Positions 2,120-34,617 of a stretch of DNA of 64,000 nucleotides are shown piece after piece; position 1 is the stretch's first letter, and every line of letters begins with the position of its first letter. The notes under the pieces are model-generated. The model saw nothing but the letters and a program-made list of their open reading frames with translations, searched no databases and had not been told where the DNA came from. Position numbers and translations under genes: made by a program. The stretch is taken from positions 7,272 to 71,271 of the IMG/VR virus record IMGVR_UViG_3300007513_002297; one strand, given 5' to 3'. Source of the DNA: a virus.

Positions 2120-3372
2120 GAAAAAAAGTCTTACTAAAGGGACCCCTTCTAACGCGTTCGGGGTATGGTGAGCAAACCCGTTTTGCTCTAAGGTCTCTAA
2201 TGAGTCGACCCGATTTGTTTGAAATATATATTCAACCGCTGCAATGGGGACAGACGTCTTGGTTAGCCGATTTGGATGAAGAACGCGTCTGGATTGATCA
2301 AACTATCGAAAAGACTATAGGATACATCCAACAAAATGGCGCATTTGATATTGCAATACAAGTTACCATTCCGAACGAATGGCAAAAAATAGGGACTACC
2401 AACATTGGATATACAGCAGGAATCGAAACAACACAAGTATCACCACAGTGGATAGAGATCGGTAACCAAATAGATAAAATTGTGGTGGTATCCAACCACG
2501 CAAAAGATGTATATCAGAAGACCGCCTATGATGCCCACAATCAACAAACCAAAGAAGAGGTTGTGTTGCAATTGCAGACAGACATTACAGCAGTTAATTA
2601 TCCAGTTAAGACCTATGAGTCACCCCAATTGGAAGAATTGAACTTACATTATGATTTTAATTTTCTGACACTAGCTCAAATGGGCCCACGAAAAAATCTA
2701 ATGAATACGATTAGATGGTTTATGGAAGAATTTAAAGATGAAGAAGTGGGATTAGTAGTCAAGACTAACCGCGCTAAAAATTGTGTTCTCGATAGAGAAT
2801 ATGTTTTTAACGAAATACGCAAATTTACTACAAGCATGGGGGATACCACATGTAAGGTATATCTTTTGCACGGAGATATGTCCGATGAAGAAATACATGC
2901 TTTATATGTACACCCCCAGTTAAAGAGTCTCGTTACTTTTACACACGGAGAAGGCTTTGGTCTTCCAATTTTTGAAGCAGCTTATAGCGGCATGCCTGTG
3001 GTGGCCACTGGATGGTCTGGGCAATTGGATTTCTTAGTAGATGAAAACCGCAAGGAGCATTTTTATAATGTGTCGTTTGATATTGCTCCGATTCCTCAAG
3101 AGGTGGTGTGGGACGGCGTTATAACAAAGGAGTCGATGTGGGCTTATCCTCGCGAGCAGTCCGCAAAAGAGCAAATGCGCCAATGTTATAACGACATTGT
3201 TGAGAATGCTCCCGATACTCCTGCTACAACAACTGACGAGTATCGTACGTGGCTGAACGAGAAGTTCTCTCCAGAAATCATGTATGCGCAGTTTGTAGAT
3301 GCTATTATCAAGGAAGAAGAATTCGACGTAGAGTCGTGGTTGGATGGATTAGATATTCAGGAAATCGAGTGA
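2116..3372 (+). CDS. Glycosyltransferase family 4 (GT-B)
   Basis: Start moved to ATG 2116 (ATGA overlap, GGAGG SD); RSGYG, PRKN, HGEGFGLPIFEAAYSGMPVV. Confidence 0.85.
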   Translation: MRKKVLLKGPLLTRSGYGEQTRFALRSLMSRPDLFEIYIQPLQWGQTSWLADLDEERVWIDQTIEKTIGYIQQNGAFDIAIQVTIPNEWQKIGTTNIGYTAGIETTQVSPQWIEIGNQIDKIVVVSNHAKDVYQKTAYDAHNQQTKEEVVLQLQTDITAVNYPVKTYESPQLEELNLHYDFNFLTLAQMGPRKNLMNTIRWFMEEFKDEEVGLVVKTNRAKNCVLDREYVFNEIRKFTTSMGDTTCKVYLLHGDMSDEEIHALYVHPQLKSLVTFTHGEGFGLPIFEAAYSGMPVVATGWSGQLDFLVDENRKEHFYNVSFDIAPIPQEVVWDGVITKESMWAYPREQSAKEQMRQCYNDIVENAPDTPATTTDEYRTWLNEKFSPEIMYAQFVDAIIKEEEFDVESWLDGLDIQEIE

Positions 3373-4220
3373 AGTTTATTTTTGTGGCTGATTTCTTTGT
3401 CGAGCATATGCTCACCAAAGGGGTCATAGGGGGAGGAGAGCTTAATAATGAAGAGTGTATACGGTTATTAATTTCTCAAAAACATTCAGTAAGCAAAATG
3501 TTGTGCCACCAAATTACTCCTTCCTTTATTAACGACAATAAAGATAGTAACTTTATTATCGCTAATTTTGTAAAGCTACACCCAGCTTGTATGGAGGCTC
3601 TCTCTCAAACAAACTATGTCATATACGAACATGATCACAAATATCTTCAAGCGCGCAATCCAGCGCTTTATGAAAATTTTAAAGCCCCCAAAGAAGATAT
3701 TGTAAATTTAGAATTTTATAAAAATGCGAGAGCGGTGTTATGTCAGTCACAATTTCATATGGGCATTGTTGAAAAAAACACCGGTTTAACAAATATAATC
3801 AATTTGGGTGGTAATTTGTGGCCCATTTCTTCTCTTAAGTTAGTTGAAGAAATTTCTAAAAAACAAAAGCATAAGAAATGCTCTATTTTGGATTCCCGAG
3901 AGCCTCATAAAAACACTCAAGAAGCAATTAAGTGGTGTTTGATAAATGATATGAAATTTGATTTAATTCGTAATCCGATTTATGCCGAATTTTTGTCTGC
4001 TTTGGGAACTAATGAAAAGTTTGTATTTCTTCCAAAAACTCCGGAGACGCTTTCGAGAGTGGCTGTAGAAGCGCGAATGATGAACATGTCATTGATTACC
4101 AACAATATGGTAGGCGCCTCCATGGAGCCATGGTTTAAACTGAAAGGAAAAGAGCTTATAGAAGTTGTTTATAAAATGAGAGAAACTATTCCCGCCAAAG
4201 TGGTAGAGGCATTTAAATGA
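3369..4220 (+). CDS. Glycosyltransferase, GT-B-like
   Basis: Start moved to GTG 3369 (GTGA overlap); GGGE N-terminal loop; PETLSRVAVEA (E-x7-E). Confidence 0.65.
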   Translation: MKFIFVADFFVEHMLTKGVIGGGELNNEECIRLLISQKHSVSKMLCHQITPSFINDNKDSNFIIANFVKLHPACMEALSQTNYVIYEHDHKYLQARNPALYENFKAPKEDIVNLEFYKNARAVLCQSQFHMGIVEKNTGLTNIINLGGNLWPISSLKLVEEISKKQKHKKCSILDSREPHKNTQEAIKWCLINDMKFDLIRNPIYAEFLSALGTNEKFVFLPKTPETLSRVAVEARMMNMSLITNNMVGASMEPWFKLKGKELIEVVYKMRETIPAKVVEAFK

Positions 4221-4945
4221 AAACACTATTGCTATCTTATCCACGTAGTGGAAACTCTTGGTGTCGTTATATATTGGAATCTATAACAGGGCGCCCCACC
4301 ACCGGCTTCCCTCTCTTGCACCCATGGACAGGAAACGTTAACTCACATTATTTTGGTAATGACGAATTTGATGACGACGTTATTCTTAAGCTTCATGGAG
4401 ACCCAACGGAATTGTACAGGGATCGTGCAGCGCTGCTTGGGGGTCGGACTTCCTTAATTGAAAAATACCTTAACAAAGAATATGCTTTAATACTTTTGAT
4501 AAGAGATCCGGTAGAAGCCATAACTCGGCATGAGGGACACAATCCAGGTTGCCCCATAAGATCACGCGTACGGGACCCGAATTATTATTATTTTAAAAAT
4601 ATTAAATTATTTGATTCTTATAATGGTTTGAAAATAGCTGTATATTATGAAGATTTAATTCAAAATCCGAAGGTGTTTATAAGAAAACTAGGAGCATTTA
4701 TGGGCGTAGAAAATTATGATCAAAAGGTAGAAAGTTTTATGGACAATTTTGAACCTCATAGAGAAACATCAAGACAATTATATAGTGCCAACGTCCAGAA
4801 GACACAAACCAACGGAAAGCCCGACAGCATTAAATTCCACAGTAGCAATTATTCTCAAAATTATTTAAAAGCACAATGGGAGAAAATAACCCAATATCAA
4901 GATCCGGACGTATTGAAATACATAGAAAGATATAAAGTATCATGA
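4217..4945 (+). CDS. Sulfotransferase (PAPS-dependent)
   Basis: SYPRSGNSW 5'-PSB loop, IRDP 3'-PB motif, YEDLIQNP. Confidence 0.8.
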   Translation: MKTLLLSYPRSGNSWCRYILESITGRPTTGFPLLHPWTGNVNSHYFGNDEFDDDVILKLHGDPTELYRDRAALLGGRTSLIEKYLNKEYALILLIRDPVEAITRHEGHNPGCPIRSRVRDPNYYYFKNIKLFDSYNGLKIAVYYEDLIQNPKVFIRKLGAFMGVENYDQKVESFMDNFEPHRETSRQLYSANVQKTQTNGKPDSIKFHSSNYSQNYLKAQWEKITQYQDPDVLKYIERYKVS

Positions 4946-5844
4946 AAATACTTCTAACAGCGAACAAGACATACAGAGGAAATGCCGATACGGCGTATTG
5001 GTATGTTTATCTGCCTTTAAAACAATTGGGGCACGAAGTGTATTGGTATGATACGGTCGCTCCTGTAGAAAAAGATTATAGTAAAATAATAGAGAGATTT
5101 AAGCCAGATTTAATTTTTTGTTGTTTAACTAATAATCGCACCATTACTCCTTTTGAGCCATGGCAAGAGATTATACAAGAAACAGAGTCCGGAAGGACTA
5201 AGACATTTAACTGGTTTTGTGACGATACATGGAGGTTTGATACATTTTCTCATGGGGCGTGTCATTGCTTTAGTGTTTGCTCAACTCCCGATCCCACTTA
5301 TATAGAAAAGTATAAAGCTGTTGGTTATGATAATATATTAGTAGGCATGTGGCATGTCAACTCAGAATTTTATCCTAAAATAGAATTTGAAGAAAAAACA
5401 ATTGACATGTCATTCATCGGTGCCCCCACTCCAACTCGGAAATTAATATTTGAACAGGTAGATGTGCCAATTCAGAATATCTTTGGAGTTTCTATGGAAG
5501 AGTTGTTTTTAAAGCACTCGCAGAGTAAAATAGGGGTAAATTTTAGCACTAACGATAATGATCCTTTTCAAAAGACAGAGATAAAACAAAGAATTTTTGA
5601 AATCACAGCCGGCGCCGGATTATTACTCACCCAGCACCATAGCGGCATAGAACAACTTTTTGAAATTGACAAAGAAATTATCACATTCACAACTTTAGAA
5701 GAGCTTTCCGTGAAGGCTAAATTCTTGTTAAAGAATCCAAAGATAACTAAGCACATTGCTGCAGCCGGTTATAAAAGATTTATTGCAGAACATGATTCAA
5801 AAATTAGATTAAAAGGTCTTATAGAACAGATAGGAGAACTATAA
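4942..5844 (+). CDS. CgeB/YkvP-like glycosyltransferase
   Basis: WFCDD, SFIG...R, KQRIFEITAGAGLLL, IA-x-x-GY-x-R-x-x-x-EH C-terminal signature. Confidence 0.75.
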   Translation: MKILLTANKTYRGNADTAYWYVYLPLKQLGHEVYWYDTVAPVEKDYSKIIERFKPDLIFCCLTNNRTITPFEPWQEIIQETESGRTKTFNWFCDDTWRFDTFSHGACHCFSVCSTPDPTYIEKYKAVGYDNILVGMWHVNSEFYPKIEFEEKTIDMSFIGAPTPTRKLIFEQVDVPIQNIFGVSMEELFLKHSQSKIGVNFSTNDNDPFQKTEIKQRIFEITAGAGLLLTQHHSGIEQLFEIDKEIITFTTLEELSVKAKFLLKNPKITKHIAAAGYKRFIAEHDSKIRLKGLIEQIGEL

Positions 5845-5846
5845 TT

Positions 5847-6872
5847 ATGAAAATATTTGTCCCCGATTATTCATCACATGCCGGCAAGTGGATATATGCC
5901 GGCATTGCAAACGCCTGGAAACAACTCGGACATCAACCCATTATAGATCCAGCTAAAGTGGACACAGACGGCAATTCGACCCACCACGCCCCGATGCCTG
6001 AGCACCCACTAGAGGAAGATTATATAATGATGTTTACTGATCATAATGCTGAAAATTCGAATTCAATATTTAGAGAAAGGGTAGCCAACAGCTATAAGTC
6101 TTTTGTTTTTGTACAACCACATATGTATCCGGCCCCATGGGGCGCCCACACCAATTATCATTCGCTAGCGTCTGATAAGACAGTACAATTTCTCAACGAG
6201 AGCGATAACGTGTATTTGTGGACATTTGCTGATATCTTGACGCCAGGTTCTCTCATCGTTGACCCTCCTCGGGATCGCCGTGGCGTAATATATCAAAAAT
6301 ATGTACCAGATTGTTATGCGAAATGGAAAAAGGTTCACACTGTTCCCTTGGGTTTTGATTCGGTGGGATATTTGCCGATTGCTGATCCAACTTATGCTCA
6401 ATATGATGTCTCCTTCGTAGGCGGCTGGGTAGATAACGGATTTAACGAAAAGCGAGCTATTATGCTAGAAATTTTTAAGGCATTTAAACATAGTGGTTTA
6501 AAGTGTGGCTTTTTCATTAATAAAAATATTAGCCATGATCAAGAAAATAGACTTCTTTATAATAGTAAAGTATGCCTGAATATTCACGATAAATACCAGC
6601 GCGTTTTGGGGGGCGATACCAATGAAAGGACTTATAAATCTTTAGGACTTGGTGGTGTTATGATATCAGACAAAGTTTCTCAATTGGAAAGGCTTTTTCC
6701 CAATGTAAAAACTTCGAACGATCCTGAAGAATTAGTGAGAATGGCTAAAGAATATGTTTCGCTGCCTTCTGAAGAGTTAAACGATTTAAAAGAAGAAAAT
6801 CGACAAAACATTTTGGACAATCACTGTTATACTCATAGAATGAGTCAGTTATTAAGCGCGGAAAACGATTAA
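5847..6872 (+). CDS. CgeB/YkvP-like glycosyltransferase
   Basis: YDVSFVGG, SKVCLNIH, NERTY, HCYTHRM C-terminus. Confidence 0.7.
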   Translation: MKIFVPDYSSHAGKWIYAGIANAWKQLGHQPIIDPAKVDTDGNSTHHAPMPEHPLEEDYIMMFTDHNAENSNSIFRERVANSYKSFVFVQPHMYPAPWGAHTNYHSLASDKTVQFLNESDNVYLWTFADILTPGSLIVDPPRDRRGVIYQKYVPDCYAKWKKVHTVPLGFDSVGYLPIADPTYAQYDVSFVGGWVDNGFNEKRAIMLEIFKAFKHSGLKCGFFINKNISHDQENRLLYNSKVCLNIHDKYQRVLGGDTNERTYKSLGLGGVMISDKVSQLERLFPNVKTSNDPEELVRMAKEYVSLPSEELNDLKEENRQNILDNHCYTHRMSQLLSAEND

Positions 6873-6887
6873 ACTCAAGAAGAAAAA

Positions 6888-7628
6888 ATGAATAATTTAA
6901 AAATGTCTGCTATTATACCTTGTTATAATGCTGAAAAATGGATTGATGAATGTTTAAGGAGCGCTCTAATCCAAACATATGAAAATATGGAAGTTATTTT
7001 TGTTGATAACGAGAGCACGGACGATAGCTATCAAATAGCAAAAAATGTACAGAAGGAATATCCCGAATTAAAAATATCATCCGCGCCAAACATATATCGA
7101 TATTCTTGGACCGAACCAGTTGAAGAAGCCTTGACGATGGCAACGGGAGATTATTTTACAATAGTTGGCGCTGATGATTATCTAAAAGAATGTTATATTG
7201 AAAATGTAATGAAGATAGTTTCTACAAACCCAGATAAAATCAAGTTATTGCAATCTCCGATTAAAGGCGTTAAAGGAGATAAAGAGCAATTTTTGGAAGA
7301 AATAAGGCATTCCTATAAAAATTTGGATGAATTTAAAAGACTATTGTTTGAAAAGTGTCCCGTAACAACCCCCACAATGGTTTATAAAAAAGAATTACAC
7401 GATAAAGGAATTATTCGCTGGAATTCAAAAGAGTGTTTAGGCGCCGCCGATTATGATTTATATTTTAATATAGCGGATCACGGATTATTCATATATCCCT
7501 ATCCAAATTGGATTGGATATTTCTACAGATGGCATGAAGGACAAGCTACATGGGGAATGCACAAAGAAGCCACAAGCTATGATCAATTAATAAAAGAACG
7601 ATGGTATAAAAGGTGGCTCAATGAATGA
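6888..7628 (+). CDS. Glycosyltransferase family 2
   Basis: IIPCYNAE, VDNESTD, GADD, DYDL, YRWH. Confidence 0.9.
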   Translation: MNNLKMSAIIPCYNAEKWIDECLRSALIQTYENMEVIFVDNESTDDSYQIAKNVQKEYPELKISSAPNIYRYSWTEPVEEALTMATGDYFTIVGADDYLKECYIENVMKIVSTNPDKIKLLQSPIKGVKGDKEQFLEEIRHSYKNLDEFKRLLFEKCPVTTPTMVYKKELHDKGIIRWNSKECLGAADYDLYFNIADHGLFIYPYPNWIGYFYRWHEGQATWGMHKEATSYDQLIKERWYKRWLNE

Positions 7629-9408
7629 AAAGATTAGAGTAGTTGATTATATAGCAAATAGGATTTCTGAGTTAGGAGTCGAACACATTTTTACATTAAC
7701 CGGCGGCGGCGCGATGTTTTTAAATGATTGTGTTGCTAAGCATGATAAACTTAAAGCAGTTTGCAGCCATCACGAACAGGCGTCAGCCATGGCAGCCGTA
7801 GCATATGCTAAGTATACCAATAATTTTTCAGTTACGATGCCAACTACCGGATGTGGTAGCACGAATTGTATAACTGGACTTTTAGATGCGTGGCAAGATA
7901 ACGTTCCATGTATTTTCATCTCTGGGCAAGTTAATAAAATGCAAACATGTTATAATTCAAAAGCTAAAATAAGACAATTTGGCGTTCAAGAAGCAAACAT
8001 TGTAGAGCTTGTTAAACCAATTACAAAATATGCCGTGATGATTAATGAGCCTGAAGAAATAGGCTATCATTTTGATAAGGCGATATATCATGCTAGTGAA
8101 GGCAGAAAAGGTCCAGTATGGATTGACATTCCATTAGATGTCCAGGGCGCCTTCATTGAGCCTTCTAAATTAAAGAGATTTGTGGTTGAAGAAAAAAAGG
8201 TTATTTGCGAATTAACACAATTTGAAATGCTTCTTGAAAGCTCTCAACGGCCTGTCATTTTGGCCGGAAATGGTGTGAGATTGGCTAATGGCGCAGAAGC
8301 ATTACAAAAGTTTGCAGAAAAACATAATATACCAGTTGTAACTACTTTTCTAGGTGTTGACTTAATGCCCTCCGAACATAATTTAAATATAGGACGCGTC
8401 GGCATCAAGGGTGGTCGAGCCGCAAACTTTGCAATGCAAAATTCTGATATGTTGTTATCGATAGGAACACGCTTAAGCGTCCCATCGACTGGCTATAAAT
8501 ATGAATATTTTGCTAGAGAAGCTAAAATTGTAGTTGTGGATATAGATCCAGAAGAACATAACAAAAATACGGTTAAAATTGATTTATTTTTAGAAATGGA
8601 TGCTAAGGATTTTATGGACAAAACAGAATTTGAACATAGAAGTAGCGATTGGTGGTCTGATACTTGTTTAAAGTGGAAGAATAAATGGCCAGTATTTTTA
8701 CCAGAGCATGAAGACGATAGTAATGGAATCAGTTTGTATTATTTCATGAAAAGGCTATCAGAATCGTTGGATTCGGAATCCGTTGTTGTGGGAGACGCTG
8801 GTTCCGCTTATTATGTTCCATCACAAGCGTTGCAAATTAAAGATCAACAAAGGCATATTACGTCCGGAGCACAAGCGGAAATGGGATTTACAATTCCTGC
8901 ATGCATTGGAATTGCATTTGCTATGAAAGATCCAAAAGTAGTAGGAATCACCGGAGACGGATCCTTTCAAACCAACATACAAGAATTACAAACGATTGTT
9001 CATTATGGTCTTCCAATTAAATTATTTATTTGGAATAATGATGGTTATTTGTCAATAAGAACTACACAAAAGAAGTATTTTGAAGGAAGATTTATAGGGA
9101 CAGATAAAAACGACGGAGTTTCATTTCCAGATACAGAAAAAATAGCAAATGCTTACGGTATAAAATATTTTTTATTTTCAAATAATGAAGAACTTGATGC
9201 CAATTTACGCAAAGCAATTGAATTTGATGGGCCAGCTATTTGTGAGGTAATGTGTAAAAAGTGGGATCAAGTACTCCCAACTTTAAGTGCGAAGAAATTA
9301 GATGATGGTAGGATGATTTCCAAACCATTAGAAGATATGTATCCTTTCTTGACACGAAAGGAATTTTATGATAATATGATAATAAATCCATTGGAGGAAA
9401 AAGAATAA
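7621..9408 (+). CDS. ThDP-dependent acetolactate-synthase-like enzyme (YerE-like carboligase)
   Basis: HHEQ catalytic Glu, GRKGPVWIDIPLD, GDGS...NNDGY ThDP motif; sits in a deoxysugar cluster beside RfbH. Confidence 0.85.
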   Translation: MNEKIRVVDYIANRISELGVEHIFTLTGGGAMFLNDCVAKHDKLKAVCSHHEQASAMAAVAYAKYTNNFSVTMPTTGCGSTNCITGLLDAWQDNVPCIFISGQVNKMQTCYNSKAKIRQFGVQEANIVELVKPITKYAVMINEPEEIGYHFDKAIYHASEGRKGPVWIDIPLDVQGAFIEPSKLKRFVVEEKKVICELTQFEMLLESSQRPVILAGNGVRLANGAEALQKFAEKHNIPVVTTFLGVDLMPSEHNLNIGRVGIKGGRAANFAMQNSDMLLSIGTRLSVPSTGYKYEYFAREAKIVVVDIDPEEHNKNTVKIDLFLEMDAKDFMDKTEFEHRSSDWWSDTCLKWKNKWPVFLPEHEDDSNGISLYYFMKRLSESLDSESVVVGDAGSAYYVPSQALQIKDQQRHITSGAQAEMGFTIPACIGIAFAMKDPKVVGITGDGSFQTNIQELQTIVHYGLPIKLFIWNNDGYLSIRTTQKKYFEGRFIGTDKNDGVSFPDTEKIANAYGIKYFLFSNNEELDANLRKAIEFDGPAICEVMCKKWDQVLPTLSAKKLDDGRMISKPLEDMYPFLTRKEFYDNMIINPLEEKE

Positions 9409-9409
9409 C

Positions 9410-10342
9410 ATGAGTGCAAATGATATAAACAAGGTCACAGTTTTGAGATTAAGGAGGCACAAGAGAGAAAAGATTAAGACAGTTTTAACTACTGCTTATG
9501 ATTATCCACAAGCTAGAATAGCTGATGGTGCCGGTGTTGATTGTATTTTGGTTGGCGATTCTTTAGGAATGACAACTTTAGGTTATAAAACAACAATACC
9601 TGTAACAATGGACGACATGATAAGACATTCGGAGGCAGTAGCCAAAGGTGCAAAACATGCTTTTCTTATTGGAGATATGCCTTATATGTCATATCAGATT
9701 TCGAATGAAGACGCTATCGCGAATGCTGGGCGATTTGTAAGAGCCGGCATGGATTGTGTTAAAGTCGAAGGTGCGATGACAGAGCGGATTAAAGCAATTG
9801 CCGATAGTGGAATTATGGTCATGAGCCATCTTGGCTTAACTCCCCACACTAGAGCAAAGTTGGGGGGATATCGCGTACAAGGAAAGACCGCAAAGCAAGC
9901 AGAAATTATACTCAAACAGGCAATTGATCTTCAAGAGGCTGGTTGTTCGTTTTTGTTATTAGAAGGCATGCCCCGAGAGTCTGCGCAGATTATTTCAGAC
10001 GAGCTTTTAATTCCTGTTTATGGAATTGGCGCCGGCAATAAAGTAGACGGACAGTTGGTTATTTTCCATGATTTGATGGGGTTATTTTGGGAATTTAAGT
10101 CTAAGTTTGTTAAGCGATATTGTGAAGCCGGCCAAATTATGCAGGAGGCACTAAAGCAATATGCCGACGAAGTAAGAGCGGGACAATTTCCAGCACAAGA
10201 AAATTTTTATGCTATTAAAGAAGAAGAATTAGAAAAGCTTTTGGGAGGAGGCAATTGGAAGCACGAGATCATTTATGAAAACGATCAAGGATTTCCAACC
10301 AACCATAGTGCCACTCCAAACACTATTACGCGAAAAAAATAA
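9410..10342 (+). CDS. panB: Ketopantoate hydroxymethyltransferase-family enzyme
   Basis: TAYD, LVGDSLGM, DMP, VKVEG, HLGLTP, GIGAG, DGQ-x-V-x-HD all present. Confidence 0.9.
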   Translation: MSANDINKVTVLRLRRHKREKIKTVLTTAYDYPQARIADGAGVDCILVGDSLGMTTLGYKTTIPVTMDDMIRHSEAVAKGAKHAFLIGDMPYMSYQISNEDAIANAGRFVRAGMDCVKVEGAMTERIKAIADSGIMVMSHLGLTPHTRAKLGGYRVQGKTAKQAEIILKQAIDLQEAGCSFLLLEGMPRESAQIISDELLIPVYGIGAGNKVDGQLVIFHDLMGLFWEFKSKFVKRYCEAGQIMQEALKQYADEVRAGQFPAQENFYAIKEEELEKLLGGGNWKHEIIYENDQGFPTNHSATPNTITRKK

Positions 10343-10350
10343 TCACATTT

Positions 10351-11151
10351 ATGAATATTTTGATTACCGGTAGAAACGGCTTTATTGGCAAAGAACTAAC
10401 AGAATTTTTTACCAAAACGGACCATACTGTATTTGCCACATGTAGGAAAACCCTAGATGTGTCAGATGAACGCCAAGTAGATGATTTTTTTAAGAAAAAC
10501 AATATTGATGTAGTCTTGCATGCTGCGATTAGAGGGGGCGGCCGCACAAATAATGATACCTATTGCGATTTGGTGAAAAACTTAAACATGTTTAAAAATT
10601 TATTAAAACACCATAAGCGTTATAAGCTGATGATTTCGTTTGGTTCGGGGGCAGAAACAAACAACACAACCTACTATGGGGCAGCCAAAAATCTAATTGC
10701 GCAAGAAATAACAAAACATGATGGAAACATTGTCAATTTGAGATTATTCGGCTGTTTCGGTCCACAAGAAAGAAGTAACAGGTTCATTAAAAATTCAATC
10801 AACAGTCTTCTGTTAAATAATCCAATTATTATTCATCAAGATAAGTATATGGATTATTTTTATATCGATGATTTAAAAAAAGTTGTTCAACATTACATCG
10901 AAAACTACACAGATGCGTTACCCAAAGAGATAGATTTGTGCTATTCCACTAAATTGAGGTTATTGGATATAGCTGAAGAAATAAAAACCTTGACATCACG
11001 TGAGGTGAATGTTATAATTGAAGATAAAACACAAGGCTCTTCCTATATTGGAAGCTCGTTTAAGTTAGCCGATTTAAATCTCAAATTGGGGGGCTTAAAT
11101 GAGGGGATTCAAAAAATGTTTAAAGTGTTAGAGGCAACACACAATGGATAA
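10351..11151 (+). CDS. NAD-dependent epimerase/dehydratase/reductase (extended SDR)
   Basis: ITGRNGFIG Rossmann motif, YGAAK, LRLFGCFGP. Confidence 0.85.
   Translation: MNILITGRNGFIGKELTEFFTKTDHTVFATCRKTLDVSDERQVDDFFKKNNIDVVLHAAIRGGGRTNNDTYCDLVKNLNMFKNLLKHHKRYKLMISFGSGAETNNTTYYGAAKNLIAQEITKHDGNIVNLRLFGCFGPQERSNRFIKNSINSLLLNNPIIIHQDKYMDYFYIDDLKKVVQHYIENYTDALPKEIDLCYSTKLRLLDIAEEIKTLTSREVNVIIEDKTQGSSYIGSSFKLADLNLKLGGLNEGIQKMFKVLEATHNG
10990..11018 (+). promoter_or_regulatory. sigma70-type promoter inside the SDR CDS, upstream of rfbH
   Basis: TTGACA (10990-95), 17 bp, TATAAT (11013-18) preceded by TGn extended -10. Confidence 0.75.
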
Positions 11152-12484
11152 GAAACAAGAAATTTTAAATTTAGTAAAGGAATATATTGAAGAAAAGAGG
11201 GCAAACGAAACCTGGGATGCCGGGAGCGATTGGGTGTCCTATTCTGGACCAACGTTTGACTCTGCAGAATATGTTGCAGCAATAGAGTCGCTATTAAGCG
11301 AATGGCTTATTTATGGAAAGACCGGTAGAAACTTTGAAATGGAATTTCCTCAATTTTTAGGAAAAAAACGTGGAATCTTAACCAACTCTGGAAGTTCCGC
11401 TAATCTTCTTATGATTACTGCGGCCAAGTCTAAACGCTTCGCCAAACAACTGAACGACGGCGACAAAGTCATTACACCGGTAGTGTGTTTCCCTACCACA
11501 ATCAACCCGATCATTCAGAATAATTTAACACCGATTTTCGTAGATGTAGAATTGCCAAGTTTAAACTTAGATTTGGATAAAGTAGAGGAGCTTTTGAAGG
11601 TAGATCCTTCTATTCGTGGGATTATGTTTGCGCATGTTTTGGGCAACCCTCCTGACATGGAGCGCTTAATGAAATTGATTAAGAAGTATGATTTAGTCTT
11701 TTTTGAAGACGCGTGTGATGCTTTGGGATCGTTTTATGATGGCAAAAAATTAGGATCTTTTGGAGACATGTCGACCTGTTCCTTTTTTCCAGCGCATCAT
11801 ATGACCATCGGAGAGGGTGGTTTCGTTGCAACGGACAGTCAACTAACGCGCAGTATTTTAGCTAGTTTCCGAGATTGGGGAAGAGCCTGTTACTGTAATT
11901 CTCTCAAACCTGGAAACGTAACAGGCGGTACTGCCTGCGGTATGAGGTTTAATAAGTGGCTTCCTGGAATGCCAGATGCGATCTACGATCACCGTTACGT
12001 CTTTGATGAGATTGGATACAACCTAAAACCGCTCGACTTACAGGCTGCAATGGGCTTAGAACAGCTTAAAAAATTGCCGGAGTTGGATAGCGCTCGTAGA
12101 AAAAACTGGGAGCGTCTGCGAGCTATTTTCGAGCCGTATGAAGAATATTTTCATTTACCGGTCGCAACCCCCAAAGCCGATCCGTGTTGGTTTGCGTTTT
12201 TGTTGACGATTAAGAAAGATGCGCCTTTTACGCGTTTTGATATTGTAGATCATCTCGAGTCAGCTAAGATTCAAACTCGATCTTATTTTTCCGGAAACAT
12301 TTTGGCCCATCCGGGATATACCCACTTGGCTTACCCTTATGGCAATTTATATGAAACATTTCCCGTGGCACAATTGGTAACCACTCGTTCGTTTTTCTTA
12401 GGGACATATATTGGATTAACTGAGGAAAAATTGAGCTATATCGAGAAGATGGTTAATGGTTTTTTCGAGGACCTTAAAGTATGA
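11144..12484 (+). CDS. rfbH: NDP-4-keto-6-deoxyglucose 3-dehydrase (E1; RfbH/DdhC)
   Basis: DegT fold with SFFPAHH (His in place of the Schiff-base Lys), EDACD and RDWGRACYC...CG 2Fe-2S region. Confidence 0.88.
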   Translation: MDKKQEILNLVKEYIEEKRANETWDAGSDWVSYSGPTFDSAEYVAAIESLLSEWLIYGKTGRNFEMEFPQFLGKKRGILTNSGSSANLLMITAAKSKRFAKQLNDGDKVITPVVCFPTTINPIIQNNLTPIFVDVELPSLNLDLDKVEELLKVDPSIRGIMFAHVLGNPPDMERLMKLIKKYDLVFFEDACDALGSFYDGKKLGSFGDMSTCSFFPAHHMTIGEGGFVATDSQLTRSILASFRDWGRACYCNSLKPGNVTGGTACGMRFNKWLPGMPDAIYDHRYVFDEIGYNLKPLDLQAAMGLEQLKKLPELDSARRKNWERLRAIFEPYEEYFHLPVATPKADPCWFAFLLTIKKDAPFTRFDIVDHLESAKIQTRSYFSGNILAHPGYTHLAYPYGNLYETFPVAQLVTTRSFFLGTYIGLTEEKLSYIEKMVNGFFEDLKV

Positions 12485-13431
12485 AAATAGTCTATATTAC
12501 GGGTTGTTTGGGATTTATGGGCTCTTACGCGACCCGTCGAGCATTAGAGCGCGGTTGGATGGTGCGAGGGATTGATAAAATCACCTATGCTGCTAATGTG
12601 CAACTCTTAAATGAATTTAATCAATATCCTAATTTCATTTTTGAGAAAGAAGACATTAAGGATTTAAACCACTTGTATGATTGTGACTATGTCATCAACT
12701 ATGCTGCAGAATCTCATGTGGGAAATAGTATCGTTGACAGTCGCGACTTTATTGATAGTAATGTGATGGGGGTTAAAAATCTATTAGATTTGATTAGATT
12801 CAAACAAAGTAATTGTAATGATAAACCAATATTGCTACACGTAAGCACAGATGAGGTTTATGGCGATATAGAAGACGGCGCCCATGTTGAAGCCGATTTA
12901 CTTAAACCTAGTAATCCATATTCTGCCGCAAAAGCTGCAGCAGATATGTTGATTTTTGCGTGGGCTCGAACGTATGACCTTCGTTATAATATTTTACGTC
13001 CCACTAACAACTATGGCATAGGGCAATATCCTGAAAAGCTTATTCCTTTATCTGTTAAAAATCTTATGCGAGGCAAGAAAATAAGGCTTCATAACAATGG
13101 CACTCCGGTTCGCAATTGGCTTCACGCTGATGATACCGCCGCCGCCATCATGACAATTATAGATTCTGGTATAACAAATGAAATTTATAATATTGCCGGT
13201 GGCTACGAACAAACGAATGCCGAAACGGTACGTAAAATTATTGAAGCATTCTACGATACCGATGAAAAATGGATGCAACACATTGACATGTCTTTTGCGC
13301 GAGAAGGTCAAGATGTTCGCTATGCTTTAAATGATAATAAGTTACGAGAATTAGGCTGGAAACCTGAACGAGTGTTTGACACAGAGTTGTCGTCTATTGT
13401 ACACTATTATAAAGAGAAATTCATATGGTAG
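12481..13431 (+). CDS. rmlB: dTDP-glucose 4,6-dehydratase-like
   Basis: DKITYA, AAESHV, STDEVYG, PYSAAK, NNYG-x-x-QYPEKLIP. Confidence 0.85.
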   Translation: MKIVYITGCLGFMGSYATRRALERGWMVRGIDKITYAANVQLLNEFNQYPNFIFEKEDIKDLNHLYDCDYVINYAAESHVGNSIVDSRDFIDSNVMGVKNLLDLIRFKQSNCNDKPILLHVSTDEVYGDIEDGAHVEADLLKPSNPYSAAKAAADMLIFAWARTYDLRYNILRPTNNYGIGQYPEKLIPLSVKNLMRGKKIRLHNNGTPVRNWLHADDTAAAIMTIIDSGITNEIYNIAGGYEQTNAETVRKIIEAFYDTDEKWMQHIDMSFAREGQDVRYALNDNKLRELGWKPERVFDTELSSIVHYYKEKFIW

Positions 13432-14288
13432 ACAATAGAGAAGTAATGAGAAAATTTATAGAAGAAAACTATAATGCGACATTTTTGCCTAATGCGCACC
13501 TTGTTGGTGCCGAAGAACAACAAATGTTTAAAGACGATTTGTTAAAGGGATTAGATAAGCTTTATGGCTTAAAAGACAGTCGCATCGGAGAGCCTGCGCT
13601 AGTGATGGGATTGGGCCCAAGCCTTTTAGAAGTAGATAAAGAAAAATACAAAGATGCGATTAAAATCACATGCAACGATTTTCACAAAGTTCCCAATCTA
13701 TACACAGACTTTAAACCAGATTTTTGGTGCGCAGCCAATTCTTATGACGCATTAAAAGAAGCTTTCGGGTACTGTATAGACAACGACATCAAAGCCTTTG
13801 TCACGATTCCGATTCGAACAGAGTTTTCACAGTTGCTAAAAATATCCAGAGAAAAAAACAAAATGGATCTTGTGTACCCTTGGATGTGGGAGCAACGCGT
13901 GTTTCAAGGGCTGTTGGCACAAAAATATAGCATTAAAGAAATGTATTCTCGCTGTAACACGATTACAAATCACATGATTGCTTTTGCACTATGGCTGGGT
14001 TGTAATCCCATAAATGTTACAGGGTTCGATTTATCTTATAGACAAGCATTAAATAAAACAGGTATGACTCATGCTGGGTTTACTGAAGAAAGAATGCAAA
14101 ACGACACATTATCTGGAAAGCGAGAGTTACCTTCCTTTGATATTCCTTCCGAACGAAGGCAAGTTATAGGCGACTTGCGATATTTGTGCGCCGTAGGAAA
14201 AAAGTATAATGTAAAGATTAATAATTTATCATGGAAGGCGAATCGGTTGCCTTATAACTTGTCATACTCTTTAGACGAAAAGGAATAA
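13425..14288 (+). CDS. Maf/DUF115/CST-like putative nonulosonate transferase
   Basis: MGLGPSL, TCND, PDF, and T-x-x-H-M-I-x-x-A-x-x-LGC-x-x-I-x-x-x-GFD pattern; directly upstream of neuB. Confidence 0.6.
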   Translation: MVDNREVMRKFIEENYNATFLPNAHLVGAEEQQMFKDDLLKGLDKLYGLKDSRIGEPALVMGLGPSLLEVDKEKYKDAIKITCNDFHKVPNLYTDFKPDFWCAANSYDALKEAFGYCIDNDIKAFVTIPIRTEFSQLLKISREKNKMDLVYPWMWEQRVFQGLLAQKYSIKEMYSRCNTITNHMIAFALWLGCNPINVTGFDLSYRQALNKTGMTHAGFTEERMQNDTLSGKRELPSFDIPSERRQVIGDLRYLCAVGKKYNVKINNLSWKANRLPYNLSYSLDEKE

Positions 14289-14329
14289 TAACATGTCACT
14301 ACGCCCTTCAGAACAAATAGAGAAAATAC

Positions 14330-14359
14330 TTGACATAGAATAAAAAAATGAGTTATAAT
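14330..14359 (+). promoter_or_regulatory. sigma70-type promoter upstream of neuB
   Basis: TTGACA (14330-35), 18 bp, TATAAT (14354-59). Confidence 0.7.
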
Positions 14360-14451
14360 ACTAAAATATACAAACATTAATCTGTCAGTCGAAAAAGTAA
14401 AGGCTTTAAAAAACACCATAGATTTTTTAACAAGATTTAAAGGAGAACAAA

Positions 14452-15288
14452 TTGTCTAGAATATATATTATAGCTGAAATCGGCATCAACCATAACGGTA
14501 ATGTTGATTTAGCTGAAGAACTTATAAGGATATCTGCAGCGGCCGGAGCCGACGCAGTTAAATTTCAAAAAAGAACTCTTGACTTGGTCTACACTCAAGC
14601 AGAGCTTGAAAAATATCGTGAATCCCCATGGGGCACCACAAATCGCCAACAAAAAGAAGGTTTAGAACTTGACATAGCAGATTACAGGAAACTTGAGGAT
14701 TGTGCAAGCTTTCTTGGTATGGATTTTATTGTTTCGTGTTGGGACCTAAACAGTCTGGCAGAAGTAGAAAAGAGCTTAAATACGAGTCATCATAAAGTTG
14801 CTTCTGCTTTGTCCACAGACAGAAAATTTTTACAAGCGCTTAACGAAACTGGTAAACCTATCATTCTTTCTACGGGAATGTGCACATCTGAGCAAATAGC
14901 AGCTTCTATTAATATATTAGACAATATAGACTATGTGTTGGCATGCACGAGTACTTATCCAACAAAGCCTGAAGAAATCAATTTAAGGCACATTTCTACT
15001 TTAAAGAGAGAAAACCCGAATTTGAAGATAGGATTCTCTAACCATTATAGCGGACACGATGCATGTGTAGGGGCTGTAGCCTGCGGCGCCGAATGTGTGG
15101 AATTTCACATAACAAAAGATAGGACGATGTACGGTTCCGATCAAGCCGCTTCGATTGAAAAACCAAAAGAATTAATTAGTGCCATCCGCACCATGGAAAA
15201 GATGCTCGGCAACGGCATAAAGAAGGTATACCCCTCTGAAGTCCCAGTAATGGAGAAATTAAGAAAGGTTGATGATGTTGCGCAATAA
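14452..15288 (+). CDS. neuB: Nonulosonate synthase, short form lacking the SAF domain
   Basis: IIAEIGINHNG, GADAVKFQ, ILSTGM, STYP, GFSNH, EFH; TTG start after AAGGAG. Confidence 0.9.
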   Translation: MSRIYIIAEIGINHNGNVDLAEELIRISAAAGADAVKFQKRTLDLVYTQAELEKYRESPWGTTNRQQKEGLELDIADYRKLEDCASFLGMDFIVSCWDLNSLAEVEKSLNTSHHKVASALSTDRKFLQALNETGKPIILSTGMCTSEQIAASINILDNIDYVLACTSTYPTKPEEINLRHISTLKRENPNLKIGFSNHYSGHDACVGAVACGAECVEFHITKDRTMYGSDQAASIEKPKELISAIRTMEKMLGNGIKKVYPSEVPVMEKLRKVDDVAQ

Positions 15289-15361
15289 AACTCTCAAAAG
15301 TAAAACTGTTTTAATAAGCGCCACCTCTCGAAGACTCGGAAAAGCTTTTTATAATGAATAA
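15272..15361 (+). pseudogene. Relic of an SDR oxidoreductase N-terminus
   Basis: 29-aa frame MMLRNKTLKSKTVLISATSRRLGKAFYNE resembles a decayed KTVLITGASRGLG motif; AAAGG SD upstream. Confidence 0.5.
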
Positions 15362-16037
15362 AAAAAAGATAGTTTGCCTAATTCCTGCCCGTGGAGGTAG
15401 CAAGGGTGTTCCAAAAAAGAATATAATTGATTTTGGGGGCAAACCTTTAGTAGCCCATAGCATCGAACACGCAGTTGGATCCAAACATATTGATTTTGTG
15501 TATTTATCTTCGGATAGTGAAGAAATTTTAGAGATTGGCAAAACATATGGCGCAATACCGCTAATAAGATCACCAGAACTATCACACGACTACGCCACAC
15601 TGGAAGCGCTGGTCAAAAACTTTTTAACAATTACAAAAAACGTTGATATAATAGTGATGCTACAACCAACATCGCCCTTGCGTACTAGCCAAGATATAGA
15701 CAATGCCATTGATGCGTTTTTTGAACAAGACGTTGATTCTTTGTTTTCTGCCGTTGAGTTGGAAGATTTCTTTATCTGGAAGAGGGACACAAACGGGAGC
15801 CTCCAAAGTGTCAATTATGATTTTGAAAACAGGCAACGAAGACAAGATATCAGTGGACAGGTTGTAGAAAATGGATCGATTTATATATTTAAACCCTCGG
15901 TTGTAATAGAAAACAATAATAGGCTTGGCGGAAAAATTGGTGTTTCTATTATGGATCCATGGAAAATACATGAAGTAGATTCATATGATGATTTAGAAAT
16001 GTGTAGATTTGTTTATAACCAAAAGGTATTAAAGTGA
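15354..16037 (+). CDS. neuA: CMP-nonulosonate synthetase (acylneuraminate cytidylyltransferase)
   Basis: IPARGGSKGVPKKN, LQPTSPLR, ENGSIY, EVD. Confidence 0.92.
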   Translation: MNKKKIVCLIPARGGSKGVPKKNIIDFGGKPLVAHSIEHAVGSKHIDFVYLSSDSEEILEIGKTYGAIPLIRSPELSHDYATLEALVKNFLTITKNVDIIVMLQPTSPLRTSQDIDNAIDAFFEQDVDSLFSAVELEDFFIWKRDTNGSLQSVNYDFENRQRRQDISGQVVENGSIYIFKPSVVIENNNRLGGKIGVSIMDPWKIHEVDSYDDLEMCRFVYNQKVLK

Positions 16038-17005
16038 GCGATAGATTAGTATATTTTAATGGTAATTTTGTACCAGAGTCTGAAGCAAAAATTTCAATTT
16101 ATGATTCTGCATTAATGTTTGGAGATATGGTATTTGAAATGACACGTTCTTTTAATAAAGAGCAATTCAAACTCCGCGAACACTTAGAGAGACTATATGT
16201 TGGTATAAAGTATTTGCAAATTCCACTTGAAATGACAATAGATGAGATGGAAGAAGCTGTTTATAAGACCATAGAGGCGAACGAACCATTTTTCAGAGAA
16301 GATGATGAACATCGCATTATGATTGATATTACGCGAGGTTTATTGGGACTCTATGATAAGCGTGTTGAAAGTGTTGAATCTGGCGTCAATGTTATAATTG
16401 CAGATTTTCCACTACGTTGGACAGTTGCATCGATGGGACATTTATTTGATAAGGGAATTAATGCAGTTATTCCCTCTCAAAGAGCAATCCCTGCACGTTT
16501 GCTTGAACCAAAAATAAAAAACAGAAGCAGAATACATTATCTAATGGCAAATATCGAAGTATCTCAGTTCGCCGGAAGTGATAACTGGGCACTTTTGTTG
16601 GATGAGGACGGCTTTGTTGCGGAAGGTACGGGAGATAATTTTTTCATTGTCAAAGATGGCGCAATTATCACCCCCGAGGGTAGAAATATTTTAAGAGGCA
16701 TAAGTAGAGAATATATTTTTGAACTTGCAAAACAACATAATTTATGTTGCGTTGAAAAAAATATAGAACCATATGATGTCTATACGGCAGATGAAGCGTT
16801 TATGACAGGTACGCCGTTTTGCCTATTGCCTGTTACTAAGTTAAATGGGCGTGATATTGGTGATGGAAAGCCAGGAAAAATAACAACATTTTTACTGGAT
16901 AAATGGAGTGAAAACGTTGGTGTGAATATTGTCTCCCAGATTAAATCATATGCCGACGAGGTTAAGATGGAATCACCGTCACCCTATGAGTTTAAGAGGA
17001 AGTAG
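16034..17005 (+). CDS. Aminotransferase class IV (IlvE/PabC fold)
   Basis: FGDMVFE, HLERL, KIKNRSR PLP Lys, EGTGDNFF, LRGISR, DEAFMTGT. Confidence 0.88.
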   Translation: MSDRLVYFNGNFVPESEAKISIYDSALMFGDMVFEMTRSFNKEQFKLREHLERLYVGIKYLQIPLEMTIDEMEEAVYKTIEANEPFFREDDEHRIMIDITRGLLGLYDKRVESVESGVNVIIADFPLRWTVASMGHLFDKGINAVIPSQRAIPARLLEPKIKNRSRIHYLMANIEVSQFAGSDNWALLLDEDGFVAEGTGDNFFIVKDGAIITPEGRNILRGISREYIFELAKQHNLCCVEKNIEPYDVYTADEAFMTGTPFCLLPVTKLNGRDIGDGKPGKITTFLLDKWSENVGVNIVSQIKSYADEVKMESPSPYEFKRK

Positions 17006-17778
17006 TGGAACTTGGAATAATACAAGGTAGATTGTCGATGCCGGTCCACAATCATATGCAAGAGTTTCCACCTAATTGGAAAAAGGAATTTGAACTTCTT
17101 GATAGATGCGGGTTAAGCCATATTGAATGGTTGATTACGAAAGGTACCGCAAAGTCCAATCCAGCATTTGACGAAACTGTATCCCTTCAAGATTTGCCTA
17201 TTAGTTCATATTGTGCAGATACGCTAGTAGACATAGGAGTGACCGATGAAGATTATCTCAAGGAACACTTGCAACCAATTTGTGAATCTGCGGTTCGCAA
17301 CAAAATAAGCACAATTACGATTCCACTTTTGGAAGACAGTAGCGTGGAAGACCCAGAACTTAGACAAAAATTTAAAAATTTAATTGCACAATACGTAACA
17401 AAATATCCTAATTTAAAGTTTTCTTTTGAATGTGAATTGACAATTGAGGGATTACAGAATATAATAGAATTATCTGAAAATTTTTATGTTACCTATGATA
17501 CGGGTAATATTACATCATATGGCTTAGACCATGTTGACTACATTAACGCCTTCCATGAAAGAATAAATAACGTACATTTAAAAGATAGAACCTATGATGC
17601 AAAAACAGTTTATCCCACCACAGGAGATACTGATTTTAAATTAATTTTTAAGACGTTATCTGATGTTGGGTATGATGGGTTTTACACATTACAAACCGCT
17701 AGAGGTAAAACAGGAATAGAGGCAGTTACAGTAATGCAACATACAAACATTTTAAGAGGACTACACAATGCAAAATAA
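17005..17778 (+). CDS. Sugar-phosphate isomerase/epimerase (xylose-isomerase-like TIM barrel)
   Basis: GIIQGRLS, FE, YDTGN, VHLKD metal ligands. Confidence 0.8.
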   Translation: MELGIIQGRLSMPVHNHMQEFPPNWKKEFELLDRCGLSHIEWLITKGTAKSNPAFDETVSLQDLPISSYCADTLVDIGVTDEDYLKEHLQPICESAVRNKISTITIPLLEDSSVEDPELRQKFKNLIAQYVTKYPNLKFSFECELTIEGLQNIIELSENFYVTYDTGNITSYGLDHVDYINAFHERINNVHLKDRTYDAKTVYPTTGDTDFKLIFKTLSDVGYDGFYTLQTARGKTGIEAVTVMQHTNILRGLHNAK

Positions 17779-19796: not shown

Positions 19797-20104
19797 TTTA
19801 TTACGTTGACATAGATGAAACGATTTGTAGCTATCCAGAAGAACGGGCTTATGAAAAAGCAGTTCCGATTGTTGAAAATATCAGCAGGATCAATGCGCTA
19901 TACGAAGAGGGTAATACGGTTGTATATTGGACGGCCCGAGGTGCTACTACCGGGATTGACTGGGCGGATATTACCCAAAAACAATTATCCCAATGGGGAG
20001 CAAAACATCACGAACTAAAAATGAATAAGCCACATTACGACTTGTTTATATGTGATAAAGCTATAAATTCATATGAGTATTTTAAAGGAGAGGCTAACAA
20101 ATAA
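19793..20104 (+). CDS. Small capless HAD phosphatase
   Basis: DIDET, WTARG, KP-x-x-D-x-x-I-x-DK. Confidence 0.8.
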   Translation: MIYYVDIDETICSYPEERAYEKAVPIVENISRINALYEEGNTVVYWTARGATTGIDWADITQKQLSQWGAKHHELKMNKPHYDLFICDKAINSYEYFKGEANK

Positions 20105-34233: not shown

Positions 34234-34602
34234 GTGGCAGGATTAGCTCCCAAATTACCACTGACGTATGATTCCGTCAATGGGTTTAGTTTAATAACAG
34301 GCTTTCGCGGGCTAGCTAAACAGAATTTTAAAATGCTGATTTTAACAATTCCAGGGGAGAGAGTAATGGATCCAAACTTTGGCGTAGGCATAACTCAGTT
34401 TCTATTTAATAATTTTCAAGCCGACACTTATATGCAAATAGATAGCAAAATCCGAGAACAGACCCGAACTTATATGCCTTTTATTGAAATTGTCGATATA
34501 TCTTTTGATTCTACGGGTCAAGACAAGAATTTGTTAGCACTCTCTATCAAATATGCTATTCCAAGAATTGGCGCGAGAGATTTGTTGGAATTCACTATTT
34601 AA
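34234..34602 (+). CDS. Baseplate wedge protein, gp25/GPW-like
   Basis: QN-x-K-x-LILT-x-PGERVMDPNFG signature; GAGGTG SD. Confidence 0.9.
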   Translation: MAGLAPKLPLTYDSVNGFSLITGFRGLAKQNFKMLILTIPGERVMDPNFGVGITQFLFNNFQADTYMQIDSKIREQTRTYMPFIEIVDISFDSTGQDKNLLALSIKYAIPRIGARDLLEFTI

Positions 34603-34617
34603 AATTGAGGATTTTTT

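Follow-up and report, generated by a model that had tools for sequence, protein, structure and literature searches.

Within a viral contig of 71,271 bases from IMG/VR (record IMGVR_UViG_3300007513_002297), ~38% complete by CheckV, we analysed bases 7272-71271, a stretch of 64,000 nucleotides that we call the window and to whose first base all positions refer unless stated otherwise. The contig is from a marine myovirus, and the window encodes a homologue of PanB, the ketopantoate hydroxymethyltransferase (KPHMT) of pantothenate biosynthesis, next to a gene for a thiamine diphosphate (ThDP)-dependent carboligase. These are the first two of five tightly packed + strand genes in 7621-13431:

7621-9408, + strand: YerE-like ThDP-dependent carboligase, 595 residues (three TPP domains in Pfam: N, M and C)
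9410-10342, + strand: PanB paralogue, 310 residues (Pfam PF02548; NCBIfam)
10351-11151, + strand: short extended short-chain dehydrogenase/reductase (SDR), 266 residues (Epimerase/RmlD_sub_bind in Pfam; only weak PDB matches)
11144-12484, + strand: E1/RfbH-type, pyridoxamine phosphate-dependent nucleoside diphosphate (NDP)-4-keto-6-deoxyhexose 3-dehydratase, 446 residues (NF011936, 471 vs 423)
12481-13431, + strand: RmlB-type NDP-glucose 4,6-dehydratase, 316 residues (TIGR01181, 294.5 bits)

A glycosyltransferase family 2 (GT2) gene overlaps the start of the ThDP gene by 8 bases, gaps of 1 base and 8 bases separate ThDP from PanB and PanB from the SDR, and overlaps of 8 and 4 bases link the SDR to RfbH and RfbH to the 4,6-dehydratase. 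The coordinates of these open reading frames (ORFs) match an original prediction, made from the letters alone, that had placed an intact PanB 1 base behind the ThDP gene in a yersiniose-like branched-sugar pathway of this gene order.

The ThDP enzyme has acetolactate synthase (ALS) as its best NCBIfam match, at 365 bits versus a cut-off of 538, and falls below the cut-off of every ALS equivalog. Its PDB matches include 8rph (434 bits) and 5ahk (266 bits), the latter of which we take to be PpYerE, compared with 236 bits for the best true ALS, a plant enzyme. By these scores the enzyme is nearer to characterised YerE-like enzymes than to acetolactate synthases, and we propose that it may add an acyl branch at C4 of a keto-sugar. 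Fourteen phage homologues show no variation at E52 (the catalytic glutamate, within an HHEQ motif) or in the GDG...NN cofactor motif (G445-D446-G447 and N472-N473). Entry 8rph is JanthE of Janthinobacterium sp. HH01, described as YerE-like, active on ketones and longer 2-oxoacids and without known natural substrates (PMC12188165); structures of PpYerE and JanthE are both cited in a review (PMC12247030). JanthE is the best solved relative of the phage enzyme, although it carries a CDG motif where the phage enzyme has the canonical GDG.

The PanB protein passes its family cut-offs (Pfam 329.8 vs 28.7; NF001452 321.2 vs 272; TIGR00222 289.5 vs 207.55) and, in its PDB match, aligned with a housekeeping PanB over the full 258 residues. 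Seven residues of the Escherichia coli enzyme (D45, S46, D84, K112, E114, H136 and E181) have metal-binding and catalytic roles, and their equivalents read D[ST]DKEHE in all 81 phage PanBs compared.

The RfbH protein matched E1 of Yersinia (3bcx, 348.7 bits), aligned over the full length, ahead of ColD (194.7 bits). His218 replaces the Schiff-base lysine, and the surrounding PAHH aligns with PAHH in 3bcx and with PAKH in a second E1 entry, 3bb8. This histidine and four cysteines (Cys191, 249, 251 and 265) are kept in 33 of 33 RfbH-type proteins. The [2Fe-2S] cysteine motif of E1 is C-X57-C-X-C-X7-C; the last spacing in the phage protein is 13 residues versus 7, and its alignment with E1 contains a 6-residue insert. 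More distant DegT homologues keep the histidine in 36 of 36 cases and mostly lack the cysteines, as does ColD. The 4,6-dehydratase lies below the cut-off (365.1) of the deoxythymidine diphosphate (dTDP)-glucose model TIGR01181 and scored 294.5 bits there versus 82.1 bits with the cytidine diphosphate (CDP)-type model; all ten PDB matches at E <= 1e-30 are dTDP-glucose 4,6-dehydratases, in agreement with its earlier assignment as RmlB-type rather than CDP-type. The SDR is proposed to be a YerF-like reductase of the branch carbonyl.

The association of PanB with a ThDP carboligase extends far beyond this contig. Scanning viral records for PanB yielded 100 pattern matches; 88 were confirmed as relatives, and 80 loci (52-90% PanB identity) were retained. 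A same-strand ThDP gene lies directly beside PanB in 78 of these 80, with gaps from -101 to 272 bases; in the 79th (L070) the first 261 residues of a ThDP gene stand beside PanB at the contig end, and in the 80th (L069) the contig ends 52 bases after PanB. Three arrangements occur: in 30 loci PanB follows a ThDP gene whose product is 51-73% identical to that of the window, in 16 it follows one whose product is only 32-36% identical, and in 32 PanB comes first and the ThDP enzyme is again at 32-36%. For all four ThDP types compared, the PDB matches place JanthE and 5ahk (presumably PpYerE) ahead of acetolactate synthases. Among 17 loci whose PanB is 79-90% identical to that of the window, the ThDP type is the close one in six and the distant one in 11; therefore, nearly the same PanB serves very different carboligases.

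The accompanying sugar genes vary between loci. A His-type 3-dehydratase homologue is encoded in 67 of the 80 viral loci (E1-type in 32, ColD-like in 35). Where the window's gene order is found (30 loci), an RfbH-type gene is present in 25, an RmlB-type gene in 23 and an SDR homologue, after PanB or ThDP, in 26, and 25 of the 32 PanB-first loci carry a more distant DegT homologue. Homologues of NeuB accompany the cassette in eight of the 30 loci of the window's order and are missing from the other 22 within the flanks fetched. Among the metagenome-source matches listed for the window's PanB, more than 120 clusters were 84-90% identical, some of them labelled Tara. The 186-kb relative L009 has a B12-binding radical SAM gene (8446-9999) directly before its PanB-ThDP pair and a second radical SAM gene (13794-14990) one gene downstream of ThDP; further modification of the branch or the sugar is therefore possible there.

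In the reverse direction, an alignment built from 14 ThDP enzymes was used to scan viral records. It recovered 79 loci; a long ThDP frame is present in 78, and in 58 of these PanB adjoins the ThDP gene. Four of the other 20 end at the ThDP gene and one (L240) has PanB ~1 kb downstream; most of the rest encode ThDP enzymes 38-47% identical to that of the window. In nine of these, all PanB-less, an SDR266-like gene follows ThDP, mostly together with an RmlB-like gene. Annotation of 29 ORFs near ThDP in 11 PanB-less loci identified an HpcH/HpaI aldolase beside or near ThDP in L268, L272 and L273. A DJ-1/PfpI-family gene and small ORFs without assignment lie near ThDP in L245, L269, L271 and L276, and L245 also has an Ldh_2 dehydrogenase.

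The same ThDP alignment was applied to bacterial and archaeal species genomes, which gave at least 599 pattern matches, from which 80 loci from many phyla were kept (40-57% identity), 77 of them with a full ThDP ORF. Of the 77, 39 have an RfbH-like gene and 19 an SDR266-like gene within four genes of ThDP. To identify the genes directly flanking ThDP, 96 of the 97 unlabelled same-strand ORFs in this position were put through Pfam (one 77-residue ORF was omitted); across the 77 loci the flanking position holds a class I/II aminotransferase gene 22 times, an HpcH/HpaI aldolase gene 15 times and a FabA-like gene four times. The aminotransferase genes (PF00155, ~390 residues; loci in the range L084-L156) lie upstream of ThDP except in L117. 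The ThDP enzymes of these 22 loci are 48-57% identical to that of the window, and the linkage suggests that amino-acid-derived 2-oxoacids serve as branched-sugar donors there. PanB itself adjoins ThDP in three of the 80 loci, in a Saccharibacteria metagenome-assembled genome (MAG), a Bryobacteraceae genome and a Bacteroidia MAG, and the Saccharibacteria locus has the window's gene order. The Bryobacteraceae and Bacteroidia genomes have two PanB genes each, the cluster copy and a separate housekeeping paralogue elsewhere; in the 0.6-Mb Saccharibacteria genome the cluster copy is the only one. Because aldolases, as in a published scheme considered below, or aminotransferases hold the equivalent place in bacteria, PanB appears to occupy the place of a donor supplier.

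The PanBs of these clusters differ from vitamin-pathway enzymes in phylogeny and sequence. A HMMER protein search returned 11,964 PanB relatives, the best 57% identical and the rest at most 52% identical save three short fragments (157-230 residues). A quick IQ-TREE search was run on 120 rows: the window's PanB, 22 of the 80 phage PanBs spanning their range, the three bacterial cluster copies, the two housekeeping paralogues and 92 representatives (58 of an initial 150 fell outside 245-345 residues and were dropped), with SH-aLRT as the only support measure. All 23 phage PanBs form one group with two other representatives (SH-aLRT 93), and a single 9-row group (SH-aLRT 98) contains the three bacterial cluster copies, which come from three phyla. 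Both groups lie inside a 40-row group (SH-aLRT 88), and both housekeeping paralogues are in the other half of the tree. The original prediction had raised the question of whether this PanB would nest among housekeeping enzymes; with respect to these two paralogues it does not.

At the positions equivalent to E. coli 179/183/200/202/212/214, the window's PanB reads L-M-Y-I-L-I (V179L, V183M, I200Y, I212L and V214I relative to E. coli), and all 81 phage PanBs read L-[MV]-[YF]-I-L-I. Two of the bacterial cluster copies have LMYILI and the third LMLILI. In the other half of the tree (73 rows), 37 rows have VVIIVV or VIIIVV, as do both housekeeping paralogues, and one row (P0178) has the full phage-type signature. 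The housekeeping-type form at 179/183/200/212/214 is V, V/I, I, V/I, V, and the window's PanB differs from it at all five. Bacteroidota served as a control: PanB was found in 387 of 401 genomes searched, with two copies in only two of them. Of the best 30 loci, 29 carry the V/I form with no ThDP gene closer than 1.5 kb; the exception, with LMLILI, is the cluster copy beside ThDP. ThDP-linked PanBs also have a C-terminal extension of ~25-45 residues that is absent from the housekeeping copies, with the pattern EELEKLLG...WK in phage copies (79 of 81 phage PanBs) and EEL..LK...WK in bacterial cluster copies. On sequence, then, the ThDP-linked PanBs form their own subfamily, with a distinct branch, a residue signature and a C-terminal extension.

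An AlphaFold model of the window's PanB (pLDDT 72.3) shows a TIM-barrel-like alternation of strands and helices. Of the six signature residues, five are placed on strands 181-185, 203-206 or 214-217 or directly after the last of these, each two residues apart from Glu185 or from one another, and Met187 lies two residues past the first strand; we infer from the model that the signature residues line the barrel. Enlarging positions 202, 212 and 214 of E. coli KPHMT widens its nucleophile range (PMC7610986), and the wild-type enzyme already accepts several 2-oxoacids with formaldehyde (PMC7611260). By analogy, the bulkier residues at two nucleophile-size positions hint at an acid smaller than 2-oxoisovalerate.

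Absences in the contig alone are weak evidence because it is only ~38% complete, and three relatives were searched in addition: L009 (186 kb, 100% complete), L056 (148 kb, 90%) and L022 (172 kb, 60%). PanC and ApbA/PanE had no match in the whole 71-kb contig or in these three records, although the host could still supply both. The same four records gave no match to PF00483 (hexose-1-phosphate nucleotidyltransferase), and Fer2, the domain expected of an E3-type reductase, had no match in five viral records, these four included. The lack of an E3 reductase, panC and panE asserted for the window thus extends to the entire contig, and for panC and panE to two relatives that are 90-100% complete. 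The accompanying claim that there is no nucleotidyltransferase stands for the hexose-1-phosphate type and fails otherwise, the window encoding a PseF-like cytidine monophosphate (CMP)-sugar cytidylyltransferase at 15354-16037. Because PanC/PanE, PF00483 and Fer2 were not found, the NDP-glucose, the reducing power for E1, the folate and the 2-oxoacid must come from the host. Use of a host reductase by an E1-type enzyme has a precedent in SpnQ.

We consider it roughly 65% probable that PanB supplies a hydroxymethylated 2-oxoacid donor for branching at C4, and give the same odds to the five genes forming a cassette that makes a 3,6-dideoxyhexose of the yersiniose/erwiniose kind with an acyl branch at C4. 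The yersiniose-like interpretation is backed by the YerE-like character of the ThDP enzyme, the adjacency in viruses and the bacterial neighbourhoods. The original prediction had let PanB act on either the 2-oxoacid donor or the acyl branch; the comparative evidence favours the donor. Reading the chemical steps, their order, the nucleotide carrier and the choice of 2-oxoacid from the gene content, the RmlB-type enzyme would convert host NDP-glucose, probably dTDP-glucose, into a 4-keto-6-deoxy sugar, from which the E1-type dehydratase would take off the 3-hydroxyl with electrons from a host reductase. PanB and methylene-tetrahydrofolate would hydroxymethylate a host 2-oxoacid to a 4-hydroxy-2-oxoacid, which the YerE-like enzyme would decarboxylate, joining the acyl unit to the C4 ketone. 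The short SDR would then reduce the branch carbonyl, and a neighbouring glycosyltransferase would take the product. A wider version of this proposal, possible though doubtful in our judgement, is that ThDP-linked PanBs are a horizontally mobile subfamily that makes no ketopantoate, uses a smaller 2-oxoacid (pyruvate or 2-oxobutanoate) and acts as a plug-in donor module for unrelated YerE-like enzymes working on different keto-sugars.

Such a pathway has partial counterparts, outlined here from PMC9306805. Yersiniose A of Yersinia pseudotuberculosis is made by DdhA-D, YerE and YerF, from CDP-sugars and with E3. The phage likewise encodes an E1-type 3-dehydratase and would share the order of ThDP carboligation at C4 followed by branch reduction, whereas YerE uses pyruvate and needs no donor-making enzyme. 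A 'unifying scheme' in the same source pairs pyruvate aldolases with YerE-like enzymes for erwiniose, caryophyllose and gastriose (ErwI/ErwJ, ErwE and ErwF; MMAR_2331/2332; MygI, MyGE and MygF), and names transamination as another route to donor 2-oxoacids. These clusters resemble the phage cassette in grouping a YerE-like enzyme with a reductase, with the genes that yield a 4-keto-3,6-dideoxy sugar and with a maker of a functionalised donor 2-oxoacid, and the 4-hydroxy-2-oxoacids taken by ErwE and MyGE are the class of product that PanB makes. The phage differs in that its donor maker would be a folate-dependent PanB instead of a pyruvate aldolase, its 4,6-dehydratase is RmlB-type and not CDP-type, no E3 or nucleotidyltransferase was found, and the carrier is a phage. 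Housekeeping PanBs such as E. coli KPHMT (1m3u) and the Mycobacterium tuberculosis enzyme (1oy0) belong to the same PF02548 family and have the same catalytic residues, but the phage PanB adjoins ThDP and not panC or panD, has its own tree branch and carries the C-terminal extension.

Other functions for the pair deserve weighing. Instead of a C4 branch, PanB and the ThDP enzyme might make a side chain, a free hydroxy-acid or acyloin, for attachment at another site, for example as an acyl decoration of a nonulosonic acid. The genes for NeuB, the PseF-like cytidylyltransferase and a Maf/MptE-like protein directly after the cassette (13425-16037) would suit this, as would the NeuB homologues in eight of the 30 loci of the window's order. 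Their absence from the other 22 within the flanks fetched does not, nor does the lack of any ATP-grasp ligase or acyltransferase in the window's Pfam annotation, and the 3-dehydratase homologue of 67 of the 80 loci makes exactly the keto-sugar acceptor of YerE; we regard this explanation as unlikely. PanB could instead act after carboligation, hydroxymethylating the acyl branch on the sugar or the keto-sugar itself, in keeping with the gene order ThDP, PanB, SDR and with a changed residue signature that could suit a bulkier, different substrate. Yet the side chains of the signature have become larger and not smaller, the conserved catalytic set of all 81 phage PanBs points to a 2-oxoacid substrate, PanB precedes ThDP in 32 of the 80 loci and makers of free 2-oxoacids hold the equivalent place in bacteria. 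PanB action on the branch accordingly ranks below action on the donor and seems to us rather improbable.

A role in vitamin metabolism would have PanB raise host pantothenate and coenzyme A during infection. A marine virome study names 'pantoate transferase' as the most abundant vitamin-related auxiliary gene and takes it as boosting vitamin B5 (PMC8940887), and the window's PanB does pass the NCBI equivalog cut-off with all catalytic residues kept. The separate branch and a signature unlike that of the housekeeping paralogues, the ThDP adjacency in 79 of 80 loci inside glycan clusters and the lack of PanC/PanE in four records, the 100% and 90% complete relatives among them, make this a poor explanation with only a small chance of being right. 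Least probable, to the point of being nearly negligible, is that the ThDP enzyme is an ALS and forms a branched-chain amino acid or pantoate module with PanB and an IlvE-like gene. Its best NCBIfam names are indeed ALS large subunit, and the IlvE-like gene lies 5.7 kb downstream; its 365 bits nevertheless stay well under the 538-bit cut-off and under all other ALS cut-offs, JanthE (434 bits) outscores the best true ALS (236 bits), IlvC, IlvD and an ALS small subunit are not found in the window annotation, an IlvE-like gene occurs in none of the 80 related loci and the bacterial ThDP relatives sit in RfbH-type clusters.

Several points weigh against PanB as a donor supplier for a C4-branched sugar. 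The pathway is incomplete without host enzymes, no E3/ferredoxin or hexose-1-phosphate nucleotidyltransferase having been found; the ThDP enzyme might handle a sterically hindered donor, ketopantoate for instance, poorly; and the NeuB/CMP-transferase module directly after the cassette means that its product may go into a structure other than a simple hexose. The protein scores as an ordinary PanB equivalog and its residue changes are conservative. Support for uniting the phage and bacterial-cluster groups is modest (SH-aLRT 88 from a quick search, with no other measure), and 92 rows of the tree come without gene context. The interpretation of the signature relies on engineering of the E. coli enzyme at positions 202, 212 and 214 only, and the C-terminal 47 residues of the PanB model are of low confidence.

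No paper linking PanB with a YerE-like enzyme in a natural pathway was found among the titles and abstract openings listed by the literature searches, and the review PMC12247030 contains no occurrence of PanB, ketopantoate or hydroxymethyltransferase. An acyl-branched sugar pathway with PanB as donor supplier is the best available reading of these genes and would be new; the present analysis contributes the signature with its negative control, the C-terminal extension, the ThDP-flank analysis in 77 bacterial loci and the PanB-less phage versions. Reading PanB as a glycan donor gene would change how a common viral gene is understood and would extend the aldolase-YerE scheme, with PanB as a third kind of donor supplier and aminotransferases as a fourth. 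If the wider proposal of a mobile PanB subfamily were true, the abundant 'pantothenate' and 'acetolactate synthase' genes of ocean viromes would be glycan genes, and marine phages, early in infection, would produce a family of hydroxymethyl-branched sugars not yet described; we recognise none of the predicted sugars as described. The residue signature offers a simple way of sorting PanB annotations into vitamin and glycan types, and the pair would be a natural PanB/ThDP system for making hindered tertiary alcohols.

The cassette belongs to a 23-kb glycan cluster, in which the sugar genes form one + strand run (833-23272). Features of this run outside the cassette, with one promoter-like element inside it, are as follows:

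833-7628, + strand: seven upstream genes (two GT4, two GT1_2, one GT2, one sulfotransferase-like, one without assignment; Pfam)
10990-11018, + strand: perfect sigma-70 consensus match upstream of RfbH, within the 3'-terminal part of the SDR gene
16034-17005, + strand: IlvE-like class IV aminotransferase (PF01063, 157 bits; below the NCBIfam branched-chain aminotransferase cut-offs)

The upstream glycosyltransferases, a set found again in relatives such as L005, L007 and L012, are candidate transferases for the cluster's products. The sulfotransferase-like gene among them (4217-4945) scored 23 bits in Pfam, at the cut-off. The IlvE-like enzyme could turn an amino acid into a 2-oxoacid; its gene is peculiar to this phage, since there is a homologue in none of the 80 related loci, and the same count ruled it out as a conserved supplier of 2-oxoisovalerate. 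Between the cassette and this gene, the Maf/MptE-like gene, NeuB-type synthase (278 residues) and PseF-like CMP-transferase (13425-16037) make up a partial nonulosonic-acid module with no recognisable PseB/C/H/G set. A guanosine diphosphate (GDP)-sugar module follows at 20104-23272, consisting of a C-methyltransferase with a zinc-binding domain, a GDP-fucose-synthase-like gene and Gmd. Upstream of the window (L002 2334-3636) lie genes for a eukaryote-type phosphomannomutase and a PF01467 cytidylyltransferase-like protein.

Four perfect matches to TTGACA-N16-18-TATAAT occur on the + strand (12-40, 10990-11018, 14330-14359 and 17437-17465) versus 0.09 expected, a count reached in none of 100 shuffles. 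All four lie inside the glycan cluster and none in the structural half of the window; L005 likewise has four perfect matches, and the one upstream of RfbH is common to L004 and L005. This suggests that a host sigma-70-type polymerase transcribes the sugar genes, and early timing of that transcription would be our guess. Overall promoter-like (63 vs 67) and terminator-like (16 vs 13) counts are at chance level, and no tRNA genes were found.

PHROGs annotation of the window indicates a tailed phage, with baseplate wedge subunits (34234-36417), an amidase/endolysin, a RuvC-like resolvase and Hsp20, and a PIN-PhoH gene lies upstream of the window. The gp6-like baseplate protein is 32% identical to that of Microcystis phage Mel-JY01 and 30% identical to that of a Flavobacterium phage. 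Among cultured phages the best DNA match spans 213 bases at 67.6%, and protein relatives reach at most 46% identity for PanB and 33% for ThDP. Microcystis phage MaAM05 was rejected as a comparison, its panB lying with panC and suf genes in what looks like bacterial sequence. Two giant ORFs of 2266 and 3728 residues (27404-34204 and 38011-49197) flank the baseplate wedge genes and have almost no family matches; they probably encode fibre or other virion proteins.

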